From Alphaproteobacteria bacterium (GTDB taxonomy: Bacteria > Pseudomonadota > Alphaproteobacteria > Rs-D84), in assembly GCA_017549445.1 (NCBI GenBank), contig JAFYUU010000001.1, positions 16,332 through 80,331 on the forward strand: a stretch of DNA of 64,000 nucleotides, in the 5' to 3' direction. Shown here piece by piece: positions 40,169 through 61,338 of the stretch (positions are counted from its first letter, which is position 1; each line of letters starts with the position of its first letter). The notes beneath the pieces were generated by a model, which saw only the letters and a program-made list of their open reading frames with translations, ran no database searches and was not told the DNA's origin. The position numbers were made by a program, and so were the translations under genes.

Positions 40169-41416
40169 TTGCGTCGTTTTTTTGCAACAGCACTGTTTTT
40201 TGTGGGACTGGCGTTGATGCCTGGTGCTGGGCACGCAGATTTAATTCAATCGTTTGACCTGTCGCCCGTGGTGCCAACTGTGTTGGACGCAATGATGATG
40301 GTCGCAACGGGAACATACGAATACTTTGTTCAAGATGGATGGGGAATTATACAGTTGCTGATTTGGGGATTTTTGGGATTCTCGATTGCACTGGGGCTGA
40401 TTAAAATGTATTTCCCAAAACAGATTCTGCAATTTGTTGGTTTTTCCGGCGGTGGCGAAATGTGGGATGGAAAGGCCACACCAAAAAATATGATAGAAGG
40501 AATACTGAAACCAGGATTGCGTGCAATTATTGCGGTGATTTTCCTGTTGCAGATTAAACCTGTGTTTATGACAAACTGGATATTAAATCCGTTTTTAGAA
40601 TTTGGTTCGATTTACACACGTGTTGTGCTGGGCACAATGAACGAAGCAAATATCGTCAACCCTGAAAAAGTGACCTGCCCCGCCGACATCGTGGAAAAAG
40701 CATGGATTTCTGAAAAGTCCTGTGAATTTTTGACCCAACCTGTTGCAGACCTGTCACACGCAAACAACCAGGTCATTCGCCGGGGAATTCAATTTATGAA
40801 ACAAGGTTTGCGGGGTATGCTGACACTGTTTTCACATAACGGTGGGGAAAACCTGATGAACCTGTTGTCGGGTATTGTAATTATCGTCACGTTCGCTGGG
40901 TGCAATTTATTTATGGCACTGTTGATTATCCAGGCAATCTTTAATCTGGGGATTGCAATTATACTGTATCCATTTAACGTCCTGGTGTGGGTGATAAAAG
41001 ACGACAAGGACTGGTTCAATCTGTGGCCCGCATTCAGCAATATCGTCAAGGCACTGCAAGATATAATAATTACGATGATTTCTTGTGCATTTATACTGTG
41101 CATAAACGTTGCAGTTATCAAGGCGTTGTTCCAATGGAACTCGTCCGTGTTCGTTGCTGCGGCAGGCGGAACCGCATCAGGTAATATTCCAACCGTTGCA
41201 AATAACGCAATGGGGTTCGGACAACATTCTGTGCTGATAATTTCTGCAATACTGACGTTCTATATCATGAAACGTGTGTTCGATGTCACGCAAAGTCAAT
41301 TAAAGGCATACACAGGAGGTATGGACGGACTGTATAACACGGTTAAATCTGATGCCAAGGCAACCGTCAGCATTGTTAAAGACCTGGGGAAAAAAGTTAA
41401 AGGATTGTTTAAGTAA
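40169..41416 (+). CDS. Polytopic membrane protein, paralog P1 (VirB6/TrbL-like, tentative)
   Basis: 415 aa with a TTG start after an AAAGAGAGAA RBS. Cleavable-looking signal peptide (ALFFVGLALMPGAGHA), several TM helices, a central Cys-pair loop (CPADIVEKAWISEKSC) and a charged C-terminal tail. Confidence 0.6.
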   Translation: MRRFFATALFFVGLALMPGAGHADLIQSFDLSPVVPTVLDAMMMVATGTYEYFVQDGWGIIQLLIWGFLGFSIALGLIKMYFPKQILQFVGFSGGGEMWDGKATPKNMIEGILKPGLRAIIAVIFLLQIKPVFMTNWILNPFLEFGSIYTRVVLGTMNEANIVNPEKVTCPADIVEKAWISEKSCEFLTQPVADLSHANNQVIRRGIQFMKQGLRGMLTLFSHNGGENLMNLLSGIVIIVTFAGCNLFMALLIIQAIFNLGIAIILYPFNVLVWVIKDDKDWFNLWPAFSNIVKALQDIIITMISCAFILCINVAVIKALFQWNSSVFVAAAGGTASGNIPTVANNAMGFGQHSVLIISAILTFYIMKRVFDVTQSQLKAYTGGMDGLYNTVKSDAKATVSIVKDLGKKVKGLFK

Positions 41417-41421
41417 ATATC

Positions 41422-42639
41422 ATGGACGAACTGATGCGTAATTTTGTTGATAAAACAGTCCAGTGTTGGGGATGCGAATTGTTTGATCGCCTGTTCCAGG
41501 TTATCAATGTGGCCGTGACCGCCGTGTATGACAATATCGCACAGTTCTGTATGATACTGATGTTGGTGATATTTGCGTTTATGATTCTGAATGCATTTTA
41601 CCAGAATATGAAGGCACTGCACGATAACAAGTCGCCAGATACGTGGTATAAAAAGTCGGTCCAAAAAGCATTTGTAAATTCTGCGTTCGTGTTGGCACTG
41701 TTGGGATTGGGTGTGACGGTGCCACGACTTATCACAACAATAACGTTCGAGCCAGTCGCAACAACCACACAGTTGTATTCCCAGGCAATAATCGGTATGA
41801 ATCAAGATGAAATAAATGAACGGGTCACATACCAGCCAATCAAATTGGATAATACTCAACAAGAGATGTTTTTCAGACCACAACTGCGTGACAGGGTTAT
41901 CTTGTTGATGAAGACAACCATCGCAGAATTTCAATCCTATATCAAACTGGGTATAGCGATGATGGACAAGGCATTTTCTTGGGACGCACTGTTAAAGTTC
42001 GGTTTGGGGTCGATTATGAAACATGTCGCACTGTTTATGGCGGGGCTGTATATGTTTATCACGTTTATGCGGATTTTTATGCAATACTGTTTTAGATTCG
42101 CAGACGTTATTGTGGCAATGGCTATGTTCGCATTTTTCTTTCCGCTGTCGCTGATGATGATGGCATTCAAGGGCGTAGAGCATGTGCCAGATTGGCTGAC
42201 ACATTTTGGCAAAGGGGTCGGGACAGATCAATTCAAGAAACTGGTAAATGCAATTGTGGCATTGGCTTCGTGCGTAATTACATACACCGTGATTATGGTA
42301 ATATTGGCCAAGTTCTTTTCTGACCCAGATGTCGCAAGTGTTGGACTGATGGAAAAAATTACAACAGGACAGATTTTCGAGTCCGATTTGTCACTGGAAA
42401 ATTTAGAAGATATAACACTGGTAAAAACTGTTATACTGACATACGTTATGGTTTTCATTTACAAACAAATCCCACAGGTGACTAAAACAATCCTGTCGGC
42501 ATTTAATGTGGGTGAAGAAACAAGTTTAAGTGACCAATTGGCAAAAGACGCAGAACGTTTGGTCACGGTCGCAGCACAGGGTGCCGTCAAGGTCGGAAAA
42601 ATTATCGCATCTGGTGGCGAAGAAAAAAAAGATGAATAA
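41422..42639 (+). CDS. Polytopic membrane protein, paralog P2 (VirB6/TrbL-like, tentative)
   Basis: 405 aa, starting 5 nt after the P1 stop. CWGC motif at residues 15-18 followed by TM helices. C-terminal tail ...GGEEKKDE. Confidence 0.6.
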   Translation: MDELMRNFVDKTVQCWGCELFDRLFQVINVAVTAVYDNIAQFCMILMLVIFAFMILNAFYQNMKALHDNKSPDTWYKKSVQKAFVNSAFVLALLGLGVTVPRLITTITFEPVATTTQLYSQAIIGMNQDEINERVTYQPIKLDNTQQEMFFRPQLRDRVILLMKTTIAEFQSYIKLGIAMMDKAFSWDALLKFGLGSIMKHVALFMAGLYMFITFMRIFMQYCFRFADVIVAMAMFAFFFPLSLMMMAFKGVEHVPDWLTHFGKGVGTDQFKKLVNAIVALASCVITYTVIMVILAKFFSDPDVASVGLMEKITTGQIFESDLSLENLEDITLVKTVILTYVMVFIYKQIPQVTKTILSAFNVGEETSLSDQLAKDAERLVTVAAQGAVKVGKIIASGGEEKKDE

Positions 42640-42648
42640 AGGCAGATA

Positions 42649-44079
42649 ATGAAAGCAAAACTGATTCTGTTGGCATTAAAAATATTTATGGTTGCCGTCA
42701 CTTTGGGGATTGGTATTTGGTATCTGTCTTCGTCAATCGGTGGTGGGGCATTGACATACACCAGTGTTGATAATTTCTTGATAGCAGTTGGGGCAACAGA
42801 TGGAGATGTCGCAAGTGTCAATGGTTGTTTCCTGTGCAGGTATTTAACCGATTTGTTCACGGTGCTGGGGGACGCAACGGGAATGTTCTGGGAACGGATG
42901 TTGAATATACTGTTGGTGCTGATGGCGTTGGGGTTTGGTCTGTTTATGATTATAACGGGGGTTAAACATGTGTGGGAAGCACTGAAAGATTCTGGAAACA
43001 ACCCAAAGACAGACGATAAACGCATAAATGCAAAACCATGGGTTGATAAAGTTGTTAAACAGGGTATTCGGGTGTTATTTGTGTCGGCACTGTTGGGTGG
43101 TTTGGCATTTGGCGGAACAGATGCACTGCGATTTATTTCTAATTTGATTATCACACCTGTGTTATATGTGGGGGCAGAACTGGCGATGATGGCCAGTGGT
43201 ATTTCGGATGGAGCAACGTGCGGTGCATTAGCCACATCAGGCAATGAAATTCTGGGACCTGTGTTGGGGTCATTTATGTGCGTAATTGGAAATATAAACA
43301 GTGTTATCCTGGCTGGGGCATCAGGGGGATTTGCGTTGATGAACTATGCCTGGTTAGGCATGGGGGGCGGTGCGTTCACGTGGATTGCAGGACTGGGGTT
43401 GGTGCTGATGTTTCTGATGATTGGTTTTGATTTGTTCTTTCAGATTCTGTCCGTGATATTCAAACTGATTTTCGTAATTATCTTTATGCCGTTCCTGTTG
43501 GTTGCATACGCATTCGAAGGGGCATGGAAGGTTGCGGGGGGACTGTTCAAAAGTGGTATCAATATGGTGGTCAAATCCGCCGTGCAAATTGTTATTGTCT
43601 CGTTAAAGGTTGTTATTATTTATGCAACCGTGGCATATGCATCTGATGCATATATGCCAGGGCCTGTTGATGGATACAGTGCAATCTTGCCACCGATAAT
43701 GGGTATGGGGCCGGAAAATCCAGATACACAGACAATGGCGGTTATTGATGTGTTCGCACAGTGCGAAAAAGTCGGACTGAGTGATGGCGAAATGGATAAA
43801 GACAAATTCACAGAATGTTTCAATGAAAAAAAATCCCAGGTAGAAAGTGTTTATCCTGATGCGTTTGGTTTCTTGGACGATGGGTGGGATTTCTTGGTTA
43901 TGATGTTTGGATTGTTCTTTATTTATTTCTATGTAATCAAGGCACGGGTGGATAATATCATCGGTAAAGAATCGTCTGAACAGTTTGACTTTGGCGGGCA
44001 GTTAAAATTACTGGGGCAGAAAATCTGGGCCGTGCCAAAGCAAATCGGTGAAGCAATCGCCAAAGCAGTGGAATCTTAA
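42649..44079 (+). CDS. Polytopic membrane protein, paralog P3 (VirB6/TrbL-like, tentative)
   Basis: 476 aa, starting 9 nt after the P2 stop. N-terminal TM helix, CFLC at residues 60-63, Gly-rich TM helices, and an extra Cys-containing acidic loop (CEKVGLSDGEMDKDKFTEC). Confidence 0.6.
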   Translation: MKAKLILLALKIFMVAVTLGIGIWYLSSSIGGGALTYTSVDNFLIAVGATDGDVASVNGCFLCRYLTDLFTVLGDATGMFWERMLNILLVLMALGFGLFMIITGVKHVWEALKDSGNNPKTDDKRINAKPWVDKVVKQGIRVLFVSALLGGLAFGGTDALRFISNLIITPVLYVGAELAMMASGISDGATCGALATSGNEILGPVLGSFMCVIGNINSVILAGASGGFALMNYAWLGMGGGAFTWIAGLGLVLMFLMIGFDLFFQILSVIFKLIFVIIFMPFLLVAYAFEGAWKVAGGLFKSGINMVVKSAVQIVIVSLKVVIIYATVAYASDAYMPGPVDGYSAILPPIMGMGPENPDTQTMAVIDVFAQCEKVGLSDGEMDKDKFTECFNEKKSQVESVYPDAFGFLDDGWDFLVMMFGLFFIYFYVIKARVDNIIGKESSEQFDFGGQLKLLGQKIWAVPKQIGEAIAKAVES

Positions 44080-44081
44080 AA

Positions 44082-52604: not shown

Positions 52605-54773
52605 TTATTGTTCCTGGTTATTTTTTTCTTCTTCCATGTCAGCAGGACGTTTCCAGTCACGGATATCTTGAATCCAAGAATCTTGCATACACTGTTCACG
52701 CAGGGCGGCAGAATTCACCTTGGATTTATCGCCGTATAAGGTTCCGGCTTCAATGCTGGTCTTGATAACAGCAACCATATCAGATGTTGCACCCGTGCCG
52801 TTCAAGATTTCGTTCAATGTCACGATGTTGCGACATGTGTTTGTTGTGTAATCTTGGGTGTTCAGACATTCGGTATTATCAGGTTCATCAATAACGGCCT
52901 TGAACTGTGCCATGGACGGATTACAAATCATTTCTTCATAGCAGTGTGGAACGTTTGATATCTGGGCACAATATGTCTTGATACGTGCAGTTGGCCAGTT
53001 TTCATTACTGCTGGAAACTTCTTCATAGCAATCGTAGATTTCACTTAAACATTCGTTAAAGTTTGTGCCGGCCGTGACCGCCTTGCTTAGAATCGTTTCG
53101 ACTTCTTCGTTATAGAATTCCAAACGTTTTTGTTGCAGGGCCTGTTGGGCGGCAACCTTTTGATAGCCAATGTTCTGGGCCGTGGCACGCAGTTGTTCAC
53201 CATATGCATCACAGTCCGCATTCGCATCCAGTGCATATTTCTGCATAATACTGCGACGAGCATCGGCAACGGGCTTACGCAAACTGTAATACGGGTCACC
53301 AGATGCAGACGTATAACCAAAACATGTCGCAGAATTTGACAATGTATAGTTAGAATTTGGTGTAATGAAATTCAATGTGTATTCGCCAGTATTATTGCTG
53401 GTCACACTGATAACACTGTTATAGTTATATGGACACTGGGATTGACCATTGCCACAGTATGTGTTGTTTGGACGACCGCAGGCCTCGTAAATGCCGTTAA
53501 AGCAACTGTCCAGAACACGATTACATACGTTGTTATGTGCATATTCGAACAGTTCATAACCCCACGTTTCCGCCAAGGAATCCTTTATCGCATCATCTGT
53601 TCCCAGATTTGCAATCGTGCCACCTATACCAGACAAACCACCAACAATGTCGGTCAGTGTGCTGAACGCATCGGTCAATTTATCCCTGTCATCGGTCAGA
53701 ATTGTGATTGTTTGTTCCTTGGCATCGGCCCAGGCCTGCAATGAGGCCAAGATATCAGAACTGTTGCCGTCTATGTTATCGATATCAAATCCAAAATTGT
53801 TCCCCGAGGATTCACAATATTTTGGTTTAGCACAGGTTTCGGCCCCTTCGTAGATACCGTGACTGGTGCACCATTTGTATGCATCGGAATCGACACTGCC
53901 CGTGGTCCAAGAACCGTCTTTATATGCATCCTGCCAAGAAACGCAGTTCATAACCTTTTCTGCATCGGTCAGCATAAACGCCTGGGATACGTCTTTACCC
54001 TTGTTCGCAATCAACAGGGCCAATTCACCAGAAACCTTAATCAATTCTTCGTTTGCGGTTTCAAGGGCGGCTTCGGCCTCGGCAAATGCTTTGACACGAC
54101 CGGCACATGCACAACGGCGTTGGGCCGCATTACGTGCCGTGCAAATTTCGTCCATACAGGTATAATATGATTCCATACAGTTGCTGTATGCATCGGCAGA
54201 AATCAGACCAGTTGTAGGATCGATAATATTGGAATAATTACCCGTGTATAATTTGTTCGACAGGTATGTATATGTGTTTGATGTTGCAATCGCCTTGGAC
54301 CCACGGATTGCACTGCCCTGGTGGGAAACACGTGCAACATTGGTGGCGTCACGACCACGAACCGCACGATTTGATGCAGATACCGTCTGAGGGGTTACGG
54401 TGCGTGTTGCCGTGCGAGATACGACATTACGGGCAACCGTTGCACGTGACGCATTTGACACATTACCACGATTATTAGAACGAGATACAACATTACGAGA
54501 TGCAACCGAACGGGAAGGTGTTTTTGCATTCGCTGTTGTGCGATTTACAGTGTTTGCAGTGGTGTTATTGCGTGGACTGGCCCGACCTGAACGTGCAGGG
54601 GTGCCCGCACGATTTGCCTGGGGACCATAGAACACGTCGTTCATTGGGGCAATCGGATCCGCCCACACCGAACGCATTGACATCAATGTCGAACAAGTTA
54701 AAAATGCACCACCCAGCAAAAACACCGTGCCAATGGCATTTTTACAACAATCTGTTATTTTACGAGTTTTCAT
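52605..54773 (-). CDS. Secreted cysteine-rich protein, paralog C (divergent)
   Basis: Start MKTRKIT at 54773 with a GGAGGGAAGGA RBS. Signal peptide (...LMSMRSVWA), an R/S/T/N-rich region with SRNVVSR repeats, then CMESYYTCMDEICTARNAAQRRCAC and many further Cys. Confidence 0.8.
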   Translation of the reverse strand: MKTRKITDCCKNAIGTVFLLGGAFLTCSTLMSMRSVWADPIAPMNDVFYGPQANRAGTPARSGRASPRNNTTANTVNRTTANAKTPSRSVASRNVVSRSNNRGNVSNASRATVARNVVSRTATRTVTPQTVSASNRAVRGRDATNVARVSHQGSAIRGSKAIATSNTYTYLSNKLYTGNYSNIIDPTTGLISADAYSNCMESYYTCMDEICTARNAAQRRCACAGRVKAFAEAEAALETANEELIKVSGELALLIANKGKDVSQAFMLTDAEKVMNCVSWQDAYKDGSWTTGSVDSDAYKWCTSHGIYEGAETCAKPKYCESSGNNFGFDIDNIDGNSSDILASLQAWADAKEQTITILTDDRDKLTDAFSTLTDIVGGLSGIGGTIANLGTDDAIKDSLAETWGYELFEYAHNNVCNRVLDSCFNGIYEACGRPNNTYCGNGQSQCPYNYNSVISVTSNNTGEYTLNFITPNSNYTLSNSATCFGYTSASGDPYYSLRKPVADARRSIMQKYALDANADCDAYGEQLRATAQNIGYQKVAAQQALQQKRLEFYNEEVETILSKAVTAGTNFNECLSEIYDCYEEVSSSNENWPTARIKTYCAQISNVPHCYEEMICNPSMAQFKAVIDEPDNTECLNTQDYTTNTCRNIVTLNEILNGTGATSDMVAVIKTSIEAGTLYGDKSKVNSAALREQCMQDSWIQDIRDWKRPADMEEEKNNQEQ

Positions 54774-54860
54774 ATATCCTTCCCTCCGCATCTGGTATCG
54801 CCCAGAAATCCGGTCTTTTTACACGCACACGTGGGACGCAATGCGTGTATACTTTGTATA

Positions 54861-54928: not shown

Positions 54929-57589
54929 TTAGTTCTTTCTTGGGAACCGAACTGCGGCCTGGGCAGCAGCCAGACGTGCAATTGGCACACGGAACGGAGA
55001 ACAAGACACTGAATTAAATCCAACCTGATGGAAGAATTCAATCGAGTCAGGATCACCGCCATGTTCACCACATACACCCAGATGGATATTTTCACCCTTG
55101 GTGTTGCGGGCCTTTTGGACAGCGTCTTTAATCAGCAGACCAACACCCAAACGATCAACAGATGCAAATGGATCTGCAACGTATACACCACGGGCACGAT
55201 ATTCGTCCAAGATTTTGGCCGTATCGTCACGTGACATACCCAATGTTGTCTGGGTCAGGTCGTTTGTTCCAAATTCGAAGAATTCGCAACTTTCTGCAAT
55301 TTCATTTGCCAGAACCGCCGCACGTGGCAATTCAATCATTGAACCAACCGTGTATTCAATGCTGTCACCCGTTTCAGCAAACAATGATTGGGCCGTGGCA
55401 TCGATAACCGCCTTGACGATATCGACTTCTTTTTTAGAACCAACCAATGGAACTTCGATTTCTGGGAACACACGGATTCCGTTCTTTTTACATTCCAGCG
55501 CAGCCGACAAAATCGCACGTGTTTGCATTTCGCAAATTTCTGGGTATGTAATCGCCAAACGGCAACCACGATGACCCAACATTGGATTCTGTTCATGCAA
55601 TGCTTCTGCACGGGCCTTGATGAATTCTACGGACTTGCCAATATGTTTGGCCAATTCTTCGATTTCTGCATCGGTATGTGGCAAGAATTCGTGTAATGGT
55701 GGGTCAATCAAACGAATTGTGACCGGCAGACCGTCCATAATCTTGAACAATTCAACAAAGTCAGCACGCTGATATGGCAACAATTTTGCCAATGCAACAC
55801 GGCGACCGGTTTCGTCTTCGGCCAAAATCATTTCACGCATATCCTGGATACGGGATGGGTCAAAGAACATATGTTCTGTTCGTGCCAAACCGATACCTTC
55901 GGCACCAAAATCACGTGCCTGTTTTGCATCTTTTGGCGTTTCAGCATTTGCCTTGACCGTCAATGTTTTGATTTGGTCAACCCATTCCATCAATGTTCCA
56001 AAATTACCCGTCAGTTCAACAGATACAGTTGGGATTTTACCTTCGATAATCTGGCCCTTGGCACCGTCAATAGAAATCCAATCGCCTTCGTGGATAACTG
56101 TGCCATCTGTTGTTTTCAAGGTTTTGGCTTCGTAATCAATTTTGATATCAGGTGAACCAGACACGCATGGCGTTCCCATACCACGGGCAACCACAGCCGC
56201 ATGTGATGTCATACCACCACGGGCAGTGATAACACCCTGGGCTGCATTCATACCAGCGATATCTTCTGGGGACGTTTCGATACGAATCAACATAACCTGT
56301 TTGCCTTCGGCCGCCCATTTTTCTGCGTCTTCGGCATTAAACACTGCCTGACCAACGGCCGCACCTGGGGATGCAGGCAGACCTGTTGCAATAACACGCT
56401 TTTGGGCCTTGGGGTCCAACATTGGATGCAACAAGTGATCCAACTGGTCTGCACCAACACGCAAGATTGCTTCTTCTTTGGTCAACAGACCTTCTTCCAC
56501 CATTTCAACCGCCATACGGACAGCAGCGGCAGCAGTGCGTTTACCATTACGGCACTGCAACATCCACAATTTGCCATGTTCGATTGTAAATTCCATATCC
56601 TGCATATCTTTGTAATGACGTTCCAATTTTTCACGAACATCACACAGTTCTGCATAGACAGATGGCATTGCTTCTTCCAAAGACAGACGACCGGAATCAT
56701 CTTTGCTCATTGGTTGCGGTGTGCGAATACCCGCCACAACGTCTTCACCCTGGGCATTTATCAAGTATTCGCCATAGTATTTGTTTTCACCGGTGGCTGG
56801 GTCACGGCTGAAACACACACCCGTGGCACTGTCGTCACCAGAATTTCCGAACACCATTGCCTGGACGTTCACAGCGGTTCCCCAATCGGCAGGAATATTA
56901 TTCAATTTACGATATGTGATGGCCTTTTTGCTCATCCAAGAGCCGAACACCGCACCAATTCCCAATTTCAACTGTTCCCATGGATCCTGTGGGAATACTT
57001 TACCAATTTTGACACCGATTTCCTTGAACTTTTCAACCAATTCTTTCAGGTCTTCTGCGGTCAGTTCTGTGTCCTGTTTATAACCCTTGTCTTCCTTCAT
57101 ACGTTCCAGTGTATGTTCGAACAAATCAATGTCTGCACCCATAACAACGTCACTGAACATCATGATAAAGCGACGATAGGAATCATATGCAAAACGTTCG
57201 TTGCCAGAAATCTTGGCCAATGCACGAACCGTTTCGTCATTCAAACCCAAATTCAATACTGTATCCATCATACCAGGCATTGATACACGTGCCCCAGAAC
57301 GAACAGATACCAACAATGGATTTTCCAGATCCGCAAACTTTTTACCCATAATGGATTCCACGTGTGCAATACCGGCACGCACCTGGTCCATCAAATCAGA
57401 CGGATATGTTTGATTGTTTTCATAGTAGTATGTGCAAACCTCGGTCGTGACGGTAAAGCCCGCAGGAACAGGCAAACCAACCAGGTTCATTTCGGCCAAA
57501 TTCGCACCTTTGCCACCCAGCAGATTTTTCATATCTGCCTGACCTTCGGCCTGGCCATTACCGAAAGTGTATACCCATTTGTTGCTCAT
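54929..57589 (-). CDS. ppdK: Pyruvate, phosphate dikinase
   Basis: 886 aa with MSNKWVYTFGNGQAEGQADMKNLLGGKGANLAEM, a phosphohistidine domain (GGMTSHAAVVARGMG) and a PEP-utilising C-domain. Confidence 0.97.
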   Translation of the reverse strand: MSNKWVYTFGNGQAEGQADMKNLLGGKGANLAEMNLVGLPVPAGFTVTTEVCTYYYENNQTYPSDLMDQVRAGIAHVESIMGKKFADLENPLLVSVRSGARVSMPGMMDTVLNLGLNDETVRALAKISGNERFAYDSYRRFIMMFSDVVMGADIDLFEHTLERMKEDKGYKQDTELTAEDLKELVEKFKEIGVKIGKVFPQDPWEQLKLGIGAVFGSWMSKKAITYRKLNNIPADWGTAVNVQAMVFGNSGDDSATGVCFSRDPATGENKYYGEYLINAQGEDVVAGIRTPQPMSKDDSGRLSLEEAMPSVYAELCDVREKLERHYKDMQDMEFTIEHGKLWMLQCRNGKRTAAAAVRMAVEMVEEGLLTKEEAILRVGADQLDHLLHPMLDPKAQKRVIATGLPASPGAAVGQAVFNAEDAEKWAAEGKQVMLIRIETSPEDIAGMNAAQGVITARGGMTSHAAVVARGMGTPCVSGSPDIKIDYEAKTLKTTDGTVIHEGDWISIDGAKGQIIEGKIPTVSVELTGNFGTLMEWVDQIKTLTVKANAETPKDAKQARDFGAEGIGLARTEHMFFDPSRIQDMREMILAEDETGRRVALAKLLPYQRADFVELFKIMDGLPVTIRLIDPPLHEFLPHTDAEIEELAKHIGKSVEFIKARAEALHEQNPMLGHRGCRLAITYPEICEMQTRAILSAALECKKNGIRVFPEIEVPLVGSKKEVDIVKAVIDATAQSLFAETGDSIEYTVGSMIELPRAAVLANEIAESCEFFEFGTNDLTQTTLGMSRDDTAKILDEYRARGVYVADPFASVDRLGVGLLIKDAVQKARNTKGENIHLGVCGEHGGDPDSIEFFHQVGFNSVSCSPFRVPIARLAAAQAAVRFPRKN

Positions 57590-57728
57590 TAGTTCTCCTT
57601 TTAGAATTAAAACGCCAAAGGATTGTGGGGTATGATTGACCTAATTGCAAGAAAAAAATCGGATATTTTTTCTTTTTTATTATAAAAGAAGCCGTTTTAT
57701 TTTATAATGCATTCAACGGATAGGAATT

Positions 57729-58199
57729 ATGAGTTTTAGAAAAAGTTTTTTTATTGCATTATTGATTTCTGCATTTCCAGCAATTACACAGGGGGCAACA
57801 CTTCCCACGTGCACACGGGAACAAATGAGATTGTTGTATTCATCATCTAAAAACTGTCTGAATACCATTACCACATCGACCGCTTCCCTATATGTATGCT
57901 GTCCAGTATGCACGGCATCATCAGCAACCATACCCGCATGCCCGAATCTGGATTGGTTGTATAACTCTTTGACCGGACTTTGCGAGCGACAATCAGAACT
58001 ATCAGAAGACGATACAGGATACATGGAAGAAACATTTGGAACCTGTGAACCTACATCAAGCGAATTAGAAATCAAGACAATTTATTACAGCAAGGAATAT
58101 GCCACACCAGACAACACAACAACCTGTTTGCGTCAATTCCAAGAAGAAAACCCAGAACTTGACCCATCTTTGCCAACGGTCCCAGACATAAAACAATGA
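57729..58199 (+). CDS. Small secreted cysteine-containing protein
   Basis: 156 aa with a signal peptide (ALLISAFPAITQGA), a Cys-rich mature part (CCPVC, CPNLDWLYNSLTGLC) and an acidic C-terminus. Overlaps the next gene by ATGA. Confidence 0.65.
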   Translation: MSFRKSFFIALLISAFPAITQGATLPTCTREQMRLLYSSSKNCLNTITTSTASLYVCCPVCTASSATIPACPNLDWLYNSLTGLCERQSELSEDDTGYMEETFGTCEPTSSELEIKTIYYSKEYATPDNTTTCLRQFQEENPELDPSLPTVPDIKQ

Positions 58200-59167
58200 A
58201 CAAGATAACCATTGCATTTTTATTATCAACATTGACAATACCTGCGTTTGCAGATTGTGTTTCCTTGGGCAAAAATTATGTCAGTTGCAAACCGGGGTAT
58301 TTTCTGCCTTTGACAGCATTTGGGCAAGAATCCAAATGCACACCATGTCCGTATGGACCATATGGTGAAGAAGACAAAGGACAAACTTCACCAGACAGAA
58401 ATACCGGTGGGGTTGTGGTCTGCACGACGGCGGAATTTGTCGGCGACAATGGATATTATAAGTATATTGGATATACCAAAACTTTTCATGCATGCAATGC
58501 GGGATATTATCTGAATAAAGCAACGTTTGGAGGGGCGTGCACGAAATGCCCAGACAATGGGAAATCGGTGGATAAAAATTCCGAAGGGATTACTGCGTGC
58601 ACGGGAATGTATGATGCAACGGGATGGTATGTATTTAATACAGATGGCACAAAAAAATATACAAAATGTGTGGCAGGGTATTATCTGGAAAATGCAAAAT
58701 GCGAACCATGTCCAGACGGAACAACTTCGCCGAATGAAAACACGGGCGGATTGGACAGTTGTAAAATAAGCAGTGATAAAACAGGATACTATCAAGAAAA
58801 AGATGGCAAGAAAATTTATTCTATGTGCAAGGCGGGATATTATTTAACCAGCGAAAAAACATGCGTTGCGTGTCCCGACCATGGAACATCACCAGACAAA
58901 AATCCCAAGGGAATCACCGCATGCACAGGAATGTACACTTCAACAGGGTGGTATGAATTTGATGCAAGCGGTGTTGCAAAATATATCAAATGTGTGGCGA
59001 ACTATTATCTGAAAAACGCAGCGTGCAATTCTTGCCCCAGTGGTGGAAAATCGCCAGATAAAAACACAGGCGGAATTACCAGTTGCTATACCATAGCCGG
59101 AACAGGAACAGACAATACTGGAAGATTCGAAACCAAAAAAAATACCGAATGTCATTATGTGGAATAA
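58196..59167 (+). CDS. Secreted protein made of CxxCP cysteine-rich repeats (GCC2/GCC3- or TNFR-like)
   Basis: 323 aa with a signal peptide (TLTIPAFA) and 22 Cys (my manual count). It contains five copies of C-x-(A/P)GY(Y/F)L-x(n)-C-x2-CP-x(n)-G-x-S(P/V)(D/N)-x-N-x(n)-G-x(2-3)-C. Confidence 0.75.
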   Translation: MNKITIAFLLSTLTIPAFADCVSLGKNYVSCKPGYFLPLTAFGQESKCTPCPYGPYGEEDKGQTSPDRNTGGVVVCTTAEFVGDNGYYKYIGYTKTFHACNAGYYLNKATFGGACTKCPDNGKSVDKNSEGITACTGMYDATGWYVFNTDGTKKYTKCVAGYYLENAKCEPCPDGTTSPNENTGGLDSCKISSDKTGYYQEKDGKKIYSMCKAGYYLTSEKTCVACPDHGTSPDKNPKGITACTGMYTSTGWYEFDASGVAKYIKCVANYYLKNAACNSCPSGGKSPDKNTGGITSCYTIAGTGTDNTGRFETKKNTECHYVE

Positions 59168-59190
59168 AAAGCGTCCAATCGCACGCTTTT
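59167..59190. terminator. Bidirectional terminator between the repeat protein and the pta/ptb-like gene
   Basis: Stem AAAAGCGT/ACGCTTTT with an 8-nt loop, followed by TTATTTTT. Confidence 0.6.
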
Positions 59191-60152
59191 TATTTTTGCA
59201 TACGGCACGCACAGGCAATCGAATATAACTTGGACAATTTAGAATCCGAACGTGAATTTACGATAATCGGTGCAGTCGCCCCCATTACAATTCCGCCAAA
59301 TACCCAATCTCCGAATTGAACCATTGCCTTGATGGTGTTATTGCCGGCCTCGATATTATGAAACATCAAGACGTCCGCCTGACCTGCAACAGGGTCTGTG
59401 ACACCCTTAATCCGTGCGGCATCTGGGGATACGGCAATGTCAAATGCCAGTGGCCCCGAGACAATACAATCGGCAATCTCGCCCCGTTGATTCATCTGTT
59501 GCAGGGCAGTTGCATCAACCGTTGCCTGCATCGCAGGATTTAATGTTTCAACCGCACACAGGCACGCAACACGAGGCATATCAACACCCATGTGTCGGGC
59601 AAATGATACGGCATTATTTATTATGTGAACCTTGTCCGATAATGTTGGATACATAATCATCGCAATATCGGTTAAAAACAGTGTTCGGTCATACTGACCC
59701 GAATACATTATTGCAACGTGCGATAATTTGCCAGGACCACGAATACCCGTTTCCCGATTTAGTGCGGCACGCAATATGTCTGCTGTGTGAATATGGCCCT
59801 TCATCAAAATATCGGCGTGACCGTTTCTGACCAGACGGACCGCCATTTCTGCGGATTTTATATCTGATTGACAATCGATAATCTTGAATTGCGATATATC
59901 TAAATCGTTTTCAGATGCAACCTGGGCGATACGGGTGGAATCGCCACACAAAATCGCCGTGGCAAAATCCAATCGGTTCGCCATAACAACCGCCGACAAG
60001 GCGTCTGCGTCATCAGCACAAGCCAGTGCAATTGTACGTGGACTGTCGGGACGCATTGACATCAATCTTGAAATAAATTTTTCTTCCATTTCTGCTTTCT
60101 CTTCGGGGGCAAGCATAGGATCTTTTGCCACATTTGGCAAGAAAAATCCCAC
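59190..60152 (-). CDS. Phosphate acetyl/butyryl-transferase family protein
   Basis: 320 aa. The overall pattern matches the PTA_PTB family (..ALACADDADALSAVVMANRLDFATAILCGD...ADILMKGHIHT...GQADVLMFHNIEAGN...). Confidence 0.75.
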   Translation of the reverse strand: MGFFLPNVAKDPMLAPEEKAEMEEKFISRLMSMRPDSPRTIALACADDADALSAVVMANRLDFATAILCGDSTRIAQVASENDLDISQFKIIDCQSDIKSAEMAVRLVRNGHADILMKGHIHTADILRAALNRETGIRGPGKLSHVAIMYSGQYDRTLFLTDIAMIMYPTLSDKVHIINNAVSFARHMGVDMPRVACLCAVETLNPAMQATVDATALQQMNQRGEIADCIVSGPLAFDIAVSPDAARIKGVTDPVAGQADVLMFHNIEAGNNTIKAMVQFGDWVFGGIVMGATAPIIVNSRSDSKLSKLYSIACACRMQK

Positions 60153-60178: not shown

Positions 60179-61210
60179 TTATTTTTGACGACCCTTGGCA
60201 CGATCCAGCAGTAATCCCAGTGGCACCGTCTGGGGTTCGCCATCACCAACCGCATAGGTTATATCATGTATTGGTGTGAAATGATTCTTTTGCCAGTGAC
60301 TGCCATGAGTAAATCTGACCATACTCAAATTTTCCAGCAATGGAATGTTCTGGCGACCATACTGGATATAATTCAGGCAATACCGTGATGCAGGGGTGCG
60401 ATACAATACTATACTGCCATCGGCAAATGGCTGTTCCGATATGATGTAATGAACGTCTCTTAACGCAACACCGTGACGCAAATCCAAATCGTAAAACCAG
60501 ACAGCACCATTGGCACGATGCTGGATATATGGGCCAGATGGGATAATTTGTAAATCAGATATCGCATTCAAGACAACATTGCCGTGTTGCATGTCGATTA
60601 TGCTCTGTTTATCTGGGGATACATCAGGATATATTTTTGCAGGCCCACAGCATAATTCAGCCGTTGGGACCGCAATATATCGATTATTTATTACATTGGT
60701 CAGGGGTTCAACCGAACGACCTATTTCCAGACAAGGACGACCATTTTTTTCAACCTGACGCAGGGGCAAATTACGTGCATATACGCCAGTTTTTACGTCA
60801 TAAAAGGCACCTGTTAAATATCCAGACCGGTGGGCATAGGGTTCCAGATGTAAAACAGTATCCGCACCAGATGGCGAGTGTTCCAAATATTCCGGCAGGT
60901 TTATAGCCGAGATATACTTTGTGCCATATTTTTTATCATCGTATCTTTTTCCTGCGTCCAAATCGCCCTGGATTTCCAGATTTATTTTCTGGGGCGAATG
61001 GATTTGTGGATATACCGCAATCTGTGGTGGGGTTTCTTTTTTATATTCAACACGGGTAAAAATGTGACCGCCGGGATAAACATGCACCCATGGTAATAAA
61101 GCACACGAATTATACCACGTGTCTTTATATTCTTCGGGCAGGTAAAACGTATCGACATAACCAAGACGGTTTTCAAGTGTTTCGGGGTAAGGCCACTGTT
61201 TTTTACTCAT
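60179..61210 (-). CDS. Hypothetical protein (343 aa)
   Basis: Start MSKKQWPYP at 61210 with an AAAGGAA RBS. No signal peptide and no recognised motif. Confidence 0.55.
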   Translation of the reverse strand: MSKKQWPYPETLENRLGYVDTFYLPEEYKDTWYNSCALLPWVHVYPGGHIFTRVEYKKETPPQIAVYPQIHSPQKINLEIQGDLDAGKRYDDKKYGTKYISAINLPEYLEHSPSGADTVLHLEPYAHRSGYLTGAFYDVKTGVYARNLPLRQVEKNGRPCLEIGRSVEPLTNVINNRYIAVPTAELCCGPAKIYPDVSPDKQSIIDMQHGNVVLNAISDLQIIPSGPYIQHRANGAVWFYDLDLRHGVALRDVHYIISEQPFADGSIVLYRTPASRYCLNYIQYGRQNIPLLENLSMVRFTHGSHWQKNHFTPIHDITYAVGDGEPQTVPLGLLLDRAKGRQK

Positions 61211-61338
61211 TATAAATTCCTTTGTTGTATTCTGTATTCCCACCCACACCGATATTACTATAACAATGCAATTTTATCCGTGCAAGGGTTTTAATACCTG
61301 TATTTATCAATGGTGGACAGTGATATAATCGGAGTATA

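Follow-up and report, generated by a model that had tools for sequence, protein, structure and literature searches.

The window analysed here is a stretch of 64,000 nucleotides (nt) from an Alphaproteobacteria bacterium of the lineage Rs-D84 (GenBank assembly GCA_017549445.1, contig JAFYUU010000001.1, positions 16,332 to 80,331 of the forward strand). Positions 57729 to 59167 of the window hold two adjacent genes, here called A and B, for small exported cysteine-rich proteins. With a probability of about 0.5, estimated from sequence comparisons, A and B would constitute an exported, translationally coupled device that combines a variable recognition head with a conserved stalk and is encoded by a conserved, unannotated cassette of gut Alphaproteobacteria. 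The evidence comes from the constant pairing of the two families, the modular structure of B and a sharply bounded block of variation between strains.

Gene layout and homologues

Both open reading frames (ORFs) lie on the + strand in a two-gene operon, and the ATG of B overlaps the TGA of A (ATGA). The N-termini, read from the sequence, have the n-h-c pattern of signal peptides with AxA-type sites, located between ...ITQG and A in protein A and between ...AFA and D in protein B. A sequence-only reading of the window had described such an operon of exported Cys-rich proteins with overlapping start and stop codons; its coordinates and the overlap were confirmed. The features of the two genes, with lengths in amino acids (aa) and a hidden Markov model (HMM) score for A, are as follows.

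57729 to 58199, + strand: gene A, 156 aa, 9 Cys, exported, signal peptide at about residues 1-22; family motifs CCP...CP.(G/D)W...GLC.R...D.TGY...(Y/F)GTC.PT (A-family HMM, E 2e-21)
58196 to 59167, + strand: gene B, 323 aa, 22 Cys, exported; signal peptide at about residues 1-19, then the N-terminal cap Cys (C21), five modules of 4 Cys each and, at the C-terminus, a hairpin tail that holds the final Cys (C319)
58256 to 58423, + strand: B module 1, residues 21-76, counterpart of the N-terminal half in single-module family members
58424 to 58600, + strand: B module 2, residues 77-135, opening unit of the first super-repeat copy
58601 to 58762, + strand: B module 3, residues 136-189, 61% identity with module 5
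58763 to 58924, + strand: B module 4, residues 190-243, 42% identity with module 2
58925 to 59086, + strand: B module 5, residues 244-297
59087 to 59164, + strand: C-terminal hairpin tail of B, YTIAGTGTDNTGRFETKKNTECHYVE, in agreement with the C-terminal consensus of the single-module family, CY.P.G...D.TG.F.Y...C.Y

A regular expression for the repeat motif matched B in exactly five units (residues 31-76, 100-135, 158-189, 211-243 and 266-297), and its number of five CxxCP motifs was reached in none of 20,000 protein shuffles. Residues 115-189 and 223-297 form a super-repeat whose gap-free alignment has 63% amino-acid and 66% nucleotide identity; together with the identities between modules 3 and 5 and between modules 2 and 4, this indicates an old duplication of a two-module block. 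Both the five repeat copies and the super-repeat had been noted earlier from the letters alone, and both were recovered. B ends in ...ECHYVE, and no transmembrane segment is visible there. An identity of A and B as lipoproteins was rejected, because there is no lipobox in either protein; the residue at position -1 of the first Cys, read from the family sequences, is mostly L, I, E or T.

A word-index search with B returned only two homologues (92% and 70% identity), on short metagenome contigs with the same neighbours, and a scan of the contigs of GTDB species representatives with the 323-aa protein gave no relative at the 8-mer level. When 1.84 billion representative proteins were scanned in full with HMMER, only 35 hits passed E<=1e-3; most of these have about 90-120 aa and align to the N-terminal 90 or the C-terminal 60 residues of B. 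The typical relative of B consists of a signal peptide, the cap Cys, one module and the hairpin tail, with six Cys in total. In this usual form of about 90 aa the module reads C-K-P-G-Y-Y-L...C-x-x-C-P...G-T-S-x-D-x-N-x-G-G-I-x-x-C and the tail D-x-T-G-x-F/Y...C. An HMM of the single-module proteins finds five domains in the B protein of the window (full-sequence E 7e-61; E 1.9e-63 with an HMM built from alignment A3), and B is therefore described as a cap, five 4-Cys modules and a tail. Judged by its alignment to this family, it is an internally expanded member in which one unit is followed by a duplicated two-unit block, with cap and tail kept.

By profile search, 50 clusters were collected for B and 53 for A, every one of them a hypothetical protein. 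The few clusters that carry a name belong to Alphaproteobacteria bacterium, Pseudomonadota bacterium and Candidatus Enterousia intestinigallinarum, and on the available sequences both families are confined to gut Alphaproteobacteria of the Candidatus Enterousia or order Rs-D84 type. Both family alignments contain invariant Cys, Gly and aromatic columns. Pfam gave no match for A in any of 47 members, NCBIfam, PADLOC and PHROGs gave no meaningful match for A or B, and scans of viral contigs (IMG/VR) with conserved-motif patterns of the two profiles gave no relative.

In each of the 27 loci examined with both HMMs, A is the gene immediately upstream of B; ten of the loci come from an independent metagenome scan. 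The genes are on the same strand and are separated by 0-25 nt or overlap; in NCBI, DD611_00970 (A) and DD611_00975 (B) are likewise neighbouring locus tags. Without the loci of the metagenome scan, the pair was counted in at least seven distinct neighbourhoods (leuS/rpiB, trxB/dnaJ, RNase J/alaS, pnp/rpsO, prfA, ftsJ/rnhA and pta/ppdK). The typical A protein is secreted, has about 115-145 aa and usually 11 Cys, and has the pattern CCP...CP.GW...C.R...DS.GYY.QNYGTC in common with the A protein of the window. In mature A the number of Cys is odd in 45 of 47 members (11 in 39, and 9 in six including that of the window), which implies a predicted free thiol or intermolecular disulfide. B has an even number, namely 6 in 39 of 41 members and 22 in the window.

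A hairpin motif, sGsDstGxY, is common to A and B (hhalign probability 94% over 14 columns); paralogy of the two was rejected, a 14-column motif alone being insufficient. Longer candidates were discarded as well. A supposed A-B fusion (P0035) is not matched by the A HMM and gives no Rosetta-stone support, and a 687-aa protein with eight stretches (P0004) is a false positive with treble-clef zinc-finger repeats (DUF4379/DUF723). Five B candidates spanning 150-230 aa were also set aside: P0053 and P0016, inspected in detail, result from an ORF call extended too far and from frameshifted reading through the A gene, and P0006, P0014 and P0031 look by eye to be of the same kind.

The B-type hairpin CY.P.G..Y.DD.TG.[YF]EFT..CYY is also found at the C-terminus of other secreted proteins of related genomes (L090, 9739-10458, - strand; L084, 336-938, - strand; L098, 9394-10122 and 5001-8147, + strand; L107, 4294-4875, - strand; L102, 3-1064, - strand). 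The set includes a divergent second small pair (142 aa and 92 aa), a 1048-aa protein with at least eight B-like modules and a CarboxypepD_reg protein. Since the hairpin ends several secreted proteins, it may be a common anchoring, sorting or interaction element.

Strain variation and proposed function

Half of the locus is hypervariable between strains, in a sharply bounded block. This was seen in comparison with the locus of a near-identical strain (L003).

57756 to 58575, + strand: hypervariable segment of about 820 bp that takes in mature A and, from B, the signal peptide, module 1 and most of module 2, with 36-54% DNA identity to L003

In 100-bp windows the flanks of the two strains are 96-100% identical, and after the block identity returns to about 90-98%. 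At the protein level A is 37% and B 70% identical, compared with 98% for the product of pta and 97% for the 356-aa protein next to it. Within B, identity resumes at about residues 115-128, and modules 3-5 and the tail are nearly identical. Even among alleles of the same class the cassette changes faster than the genes beside it: the ratio of nonsynonymous to synonymous substitution rates (dN/dS) is 0.04-0.08 for pta, 0.17-0.18 for the gene of the 356-aa neighbour, 0.35-0.68 for B and about 1.3 for A, the last from few sites. Across the families A diverges faster than B (mean identity 0.44 versus 0.60).

The modules of B recall extracellular domains of eukaryotes. The Cys, Gly and aromatic spacing of PF07699, C..G.Y...C..CP.G...G...C, is present in five tandem units. 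TNFR_ELAPOR1_6th matched B at E 0.0018 (18.6 bits versus a cut-off of 33.2), and the close homologues of B all match Ephrin_rec_like, at best with E 1.9e-5, by calculation probably just over the cut-off. Matches to the 41 single-module relatives were weak (E 0.004-0.05) and fell on TNFR_ELAPOR1_6th (7 members), Furin-like_2 (6), Ephrin_rec_like (5, best E 0.0039) and VSP (4). The VSP profile (PF03302, cut-off 31.4 bits) did not match B of the window, and its E-values in the four relatives were at least 0.0037. TNFR_c6 (PF00020) matched just two of the 41 members with E of at least 0.19, so that a relationship to this family failed at the HMM level; a TNFR module has about 40 aa and 6 Cys in three disulfides of defined connectivity, and the single-module proteins of the B family contain 6 Cys. 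A search of the B profile against PDB sequences brought up TNFR1, HVEM, R-spondin and EphA2 weakly, at E 0.04-0.2 (TNFR1/HVEM 0.08-0.25). The A profile found only bovine heavy chains of antibodies with an ultralong complementarity-determining region (E 0.0035-0.25), which was judged compositional.

A model of a single-module relative, from an alignment of 41 sequences, reached a predicted local distance difference test score (pLDDT) of 83-91 over the mature protein. Of its 50 best Foldseek neighbours in PDB, about two thirds are Cys-rich domains of the TNFR superfamily, EphA2, ELAPOR1 or class C G protein-coupled receptors, at a best E of 0.74 and query TM-scores of 0.25-0.36, none of them significant. 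For the five-module protein no PDB neighbour was found at E<=0.001. Its weak neighbours are the unrelated clostridial CROP repeats (best E 0.025, range 0.025-0.09), choline-binding hairpin solenoids and the Cys-rich domains of TNFR, EphA2 and CaSR. The CROP matches are taken only as a hint that the GW/GY hairpin linkers may be similar to the hairpins of solenoids.

With hhalign the B profile matched VSP-type repeats from metagenome ORFs at 95.7% probability over 24 columns only; the repeat set had been picked by a regular expression for the motif, and this choice inflates the match. These ORFs of about 400-1070 aa span their contigs (Ga02567xx/Ga02568xx; L110-L114, L116-L118) and carry CxxC/ANYYL repeats. 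Two of them (L110 and L111) are true members of the Giardia VSP family by Pfam VSP (E 7e-18 and 4e-32), and ORFs of this type are probably protist sequences from similar samples; they served as a comparison set only. Overall the resemblance of B to eukaryotic modules seems real at the level of motif and fold type, and too weak for family membership. The earlier description of the repeats as eukaryote-like thus survives as a borderline profile likeness to GCC2_GCC3, TNFR, furin-like and VSP repeats; assignment to Ephrin_rec_like stays under the cut-off, and no fold match is significant.

These observations can be combined as follows. A and B would be exported by Sec and folded oxidatively. Their constant adjacency and frequent translational coupling suggest that they act together, probably in a complex at the envelope or the cell surface. 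The module of B would form a disulfide-stapled beta-hairpin rod of the TNFR, ephrin-receptor or furin-like kind, a shape that elsewhere serves protein or glycan binding. A and modules 1-2 of B appear to be swapped as one block between near-identical strains, with B modules 3-5 and the tail conserved; given this exchange beside a conserved remainder, A and the N-terminus of B most likely make up a recognition head on a stalk or anchor of modules 3-5 and the tail. Such a device could serve to attach to or recognise the surface of a partner cell or host, and diversifying selection would act on it.

Several points weigh against this reading. The hypervariable block is known from one strain pair only. 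Ephrin_rec_like (PF07699, GCC2_GCC3) matches B of the window at E 8.8e-5 with 22.6 bits, under its gathering cut-off of 23.1. The five-module model, from a shallow alignment, has a pLDDT of 62, and fold claims from this AlphaFold model were dropped as the score is too low. Matches to TNFR or ephrin-receptor modules, whether by structure or by profile, all fall short of significance (best Foldseek E 0.74 and 0.025 for the two models). Sec signal peptides guarantee delivery to the periplasm only. No A-B fusion protein, which would have shown physical interaction, was found among the homologues. The pattern of variation suits any arms-race function, such as a toxin or a phage receptor, equally well as adhesion.

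A more specific version of the preferred reading, in which the pair forms a polymorphic surface recognition complex docking to a partner (a protist, a host cell or another microbe), the block of A and the B N-terminus sets partner or strain specificity, and the B modules are ancient acquisitions from or mimics of protist VSP or GCC2_GCC3 proteins, is tentative and rated unlikely. The same low rating applies to the proposal that a eukaryote, for instance a gut protist bearing VSP, furin-like or GCC2_GCC3 surface proteins, was the source of the B module, which now mimics or engages eukaryotic surface molecules. The borderline Pfam matches to Ephrin_rec_like, TNFR_ELAPOR1, Furin-like_2 and VSP, the hhalign match to the probably protist metagenomic repeats and the partner-dependent life proposed for the host lineage speak for such an origin. 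However, none of the 35 hits among the 1.84 billion representative proteins is a close eukaryotic relative; nearly all are single-module proteins of the gut-alphaproteobacterial layout, and the best hits outside the family have E above 1e-5 and look mostly bacterial. There is therefore no evidence for a recent transfer from eukaryote to bacterium, and this suggestion of the sequence-only reading found no support. The G+C content of the cassette also equals that of the surrounding genome, the repeats of the hhalign match were selected by motif, convergence is easy for short Cys-rich hairpins, and partner A lacks any eukaryotic similarity.

The head-and-stalk reading has also to be compared with a secreted antagonistic pair, in which B would be a disulfide-stabilised antimicrobial or cytotoxic protein and A a co-toxin, a chaperone or an exported immunity protein or antidote, both evolving in an arms race of toxin and immunity. 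Small, exported, Cys-rich and fast-evolving proteins would fit, as would a variable block made of one entire gene and the adjoining part of the other, and the presence of the cassette at different chromosomal sites in different lineages. Yet both proteins have cleavable signal peptides with no cytoplasmic or membrane immunity-like gene alongside, and PADLOC, PHROGs, Pfam and NCBIfam gave no match to a toxin or bacteriocin. That a whole order retains the cassette despite extreme genome reduction points to a core role more than to an accessory weapon, and tandem growth to five modules typifies stalks and adhesins but not toxins. An antagonistic pair is accordingly regarded as improbable.

Doubt is somewhat greater about a structural role, in which periplasmic or outer-membrane-associated A and B would stiffen the envelope through disulfide cross-links in the manner of the chlamydial Cys-rich proteins. 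The two are co-transcribed, exported and rich in Cys, the odd Cys number in A leaves one thiol for an intermolecular bond, and several further Cys-rich exported proteins are encoded nearby. Against this, swaps of hypervariable alleles between near-identical strains and dN/dS values of 0.35-1.3 are rare for structural proteins, A and B lack a lipobox and any Pfam similarity to the chlamydial Omc families, and the Rs-D84 genomes encode a normal rod-shape and peptidoglycan-synthesis machinery (PMC12306168). That A and B are chance ORFs or decaying pseudogenes without function is scarcely credible in spite of the missing annotation and Pfam family and an A gene interrupted by Ns or a frameshift at one locus (L001), given about 50 clusters per family with invariant columns, adjacency at all 27 loci, a CxxCP count unmatched by the shuffles and a dN/dS of B below 1, and conservation excludes reading the pair as an artefact.

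Insertion site and neighbouring genes

In the window the cassette lies between ppdK and pta and is bordered by two elements.

57590 to 57728, no strand: divergent intergenic region between ppdK (- strand) and gene A (+ strand); its ppdK-proximal part, CCGATTTTTTTCTTGCAATT...CCCCACAATC...AGGAG, is conserved in other Enterousia genomes
59166 to 59197, no strand: hairpin between the convergent stops of B and pta, AAAAAGCGT-CCAATCGC-ACGCTTTTT, flanked by a run of A on one side and of T on the other (-13.8 kcal/mol, z -2.9)

The conserved ppdK-proximal sequence shows where the cassette was inserted. In four other Enterousia genomes the spacer between pta and ppdK has only about 110 bp and holds a terminator and a conserved promoter-like stretch, and the window keeps the ppdK-side half of this sequence beside gene A. 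By this comparison the cassette is a lineage-specific insert between pta and ppdK. The insert splits the ancestral pta terminator (57590-57728 and 59168-59189).

An AGGA motif resembling a Shine-Dalgarno sequence is found 8 nt 5' of the ATG of A, and a single weak sigma-70-like match at 57607-57636. A promoter consensus scan gave seven sites versus 5.1 expected from shuffles, which is not over background. The hairpin behind B is probably a shared bidirectional terminator; it was left unflagged by a simple terminator consensus scan, which was itself not over background. There is no rRNA gene in the window.

The spacer is a variable hot spot in Enterousia, where other genomes have unrelated inserts of 0.6-3.8 kb. 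These include 450-530-aa proteins with a common GKKLPFYISSGTAGKT(D/E)VPTGKWEFFGGI, at loci upstream of ppdK (L004, L006, L007, L008, L018, L022, L037 and L061).

The ppdK gene (54929-57589) is 89-95% identical to that of metagenome-assembled genomes of Candidatus Enterousia sp. and Alphaproteobacteria bacterium from yak, buffalo, horse and human gut, with 95% reached in Candidatus Enterousia genomes of ruminant gut. On the other side, pta (59190-60152) is just 61-67% identical to pta of Enterousia genomes with a 95%-identical ppdK, and no homologue of the 356-aa neighbour (60179-61249) turned up in the 20-kb regions around ppdK that were retrieved for such genomes. The region is seen as a mosaic, because the two sides of the cassette differ in their evolutionary relationships.

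Further Cys-rich proteins are encoded beyond ppdK.

48217 to 50382, 50436 to 52505 and 52605 to 54791, - strand: three exported Cys-rich proteins with 23-31 Cys each, long Ser/Thr/Arg-rich N-terminal regions and no Pfam family

Together with A and B these are the most Cys-rich full-length genes of the window. The Cys content is 5.8-6.8% in A and B, 3.3-4.3% in the three large proteins and about 0.5-2.5% in most other ORFs, and by these percentages the earlier statement that 11 kb hold five Cys-rich exported proteins is correct. Identity is 48% between the 721-aa and 689-aa proteins; the 728-aa one is a distant relative, matching only in the N-terminal 231 aa at 27%. An additional EGF-like C-terminal tail, CVCLTGYEPWGTQCLRVCDPN..., is present in the 721-aa protein. 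The three appear to evolve fast, since they are 40-65% identical in Enterousia genomes where ppdK is 89-95% identical.

They are unrelated to A and B by HMM, and they are conserved beside ppdK in Enterousia genomes that lack the cassette at that site. As the cassette was inserted between pta and ppdK in the lineage of the window, its closeness to the three is not conserved, and a functional link was rejected. Of their grouping with A and B in the sequence-only reading, the proximity stands, as a matter of position only.

Elsewhere in the window, positions 40169-45380 on the + strand hold four consecutive ORFs (415, 405, 476 and 432 aa) without a Pfam match, the last of which encodes a polytopic membrane protein whose N-terminus resembles a signal peptide. 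A family assignment is lacking for many proteins of the window.

Significance and comparison with known systems

Enterousia belongs to the order Rs-D84, whose members are widespread in human, ruminant, horse and chicken guts. Its genomes have 0.75-1.0 Mb and are without the tricarboxylic acid cycle, respiration and most biosynthesis; an obligate symbiotic or parasitic lifestyle was proposed, possibly with intercellular connections to a partner (PMC12306168). Cysteine-rich or secreted proteins are not mentioned in that description, and searches of the wider literature brought up nothing relevant. The module type itself is already known, mostly from eukaryotes. New are the bacterial cassette of A and B, its distribution, its expansion and the allele swap.

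Two protein families without a Pfam or NCBIfam model are defined here, and a bacterial family built on a Cys-rich module in the TNFR or furin-like style is documented, with a clean example of growth in module number from one to five. The cassette is a concrete candidate for partner-interaction machinery, being kept despite genome reduction, encoding exported receptor-like proteins and showing bounded hypervariability. If the tentative docking complex were true, it would offer a first molecular handle on how Enterousia and other Rs-D84 bacteria attach to whatever they live on.

The closest likeness of B in module type is to PF07699, TNFR (PF00020, PF23091 TNFR_ELAPOR1_6th) and the furin-like repeats (PF15913; R-spondin). 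In all of these, short disulfide-stapled beta-hairpin modules of the form C-x-x-G-(Y/F)-(Y/F)...C-x-x-C-P-x-G...C follow one another in a tandem extracellular rod; they provide the borderline HMM matches and dominate the weak structural neighbours of B. In contrast, the single-module members score far under the cut-off and B of the window slightly under it, and the conserved GTSxDxNTGGI loop and the D-x-T-G-x-F/Y tail occur in B only. B is moreover bacterial, predicted to be Sec-secreted without a membrane anchor, and always paired with A.

The VSPs (variant-specific surface proteins) of Giardia and other CXXC-rich antigens of protists (PF03302) have a C-x-A-(N/G)-Y-Y-L-x-x-G-x-C-x-x-C core in many repeats and are exported; a local profile match of 24 columns links them to B, and surface variation is a common theme, which for B is inferred. 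B has one to five modules in place of dozens and no visible C-terminal transmembrane segment, whereas the VSPs of Giardia carry a CRGKA tail. A and B vary by allelic replacement between strains, unlike the VSPs, which switch among hundreds of paralogs.

In Chlamydia the small and large Cys-rich envelope proteins, OmcA and OmcB, are encoded in one operon. Like A and B they are co-transcribed exported Cys-rich proteins of a host-dependent bacterium with a reduced genome. They have no sequence similarity to A and B, which are not lipoproteins and are hypervariable between strains.

TraA and TraB of Myxococcus are a polymorphic pair for cell-cell recognition, encoded in a two-gene operon for exported proteins, one of which has a tandem Cys-rich stalk and a part that varies between strains and sets specificity. 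The system is characterised by a PA14-like variable domain, a C-terminal sorting tag and a partner with an OmpA domain. There is no sequence relationship to this system; A and B are far smaller, neither has a Pfam match to the PA14 or OmpA domains of the TraA/TraB type, and their recognition role is proposed from sequence. As a functional analogy only, the two systems would have in common two exported proteins, a Cys-rich tandem stalk and a recognition part that differs from strain to strain.

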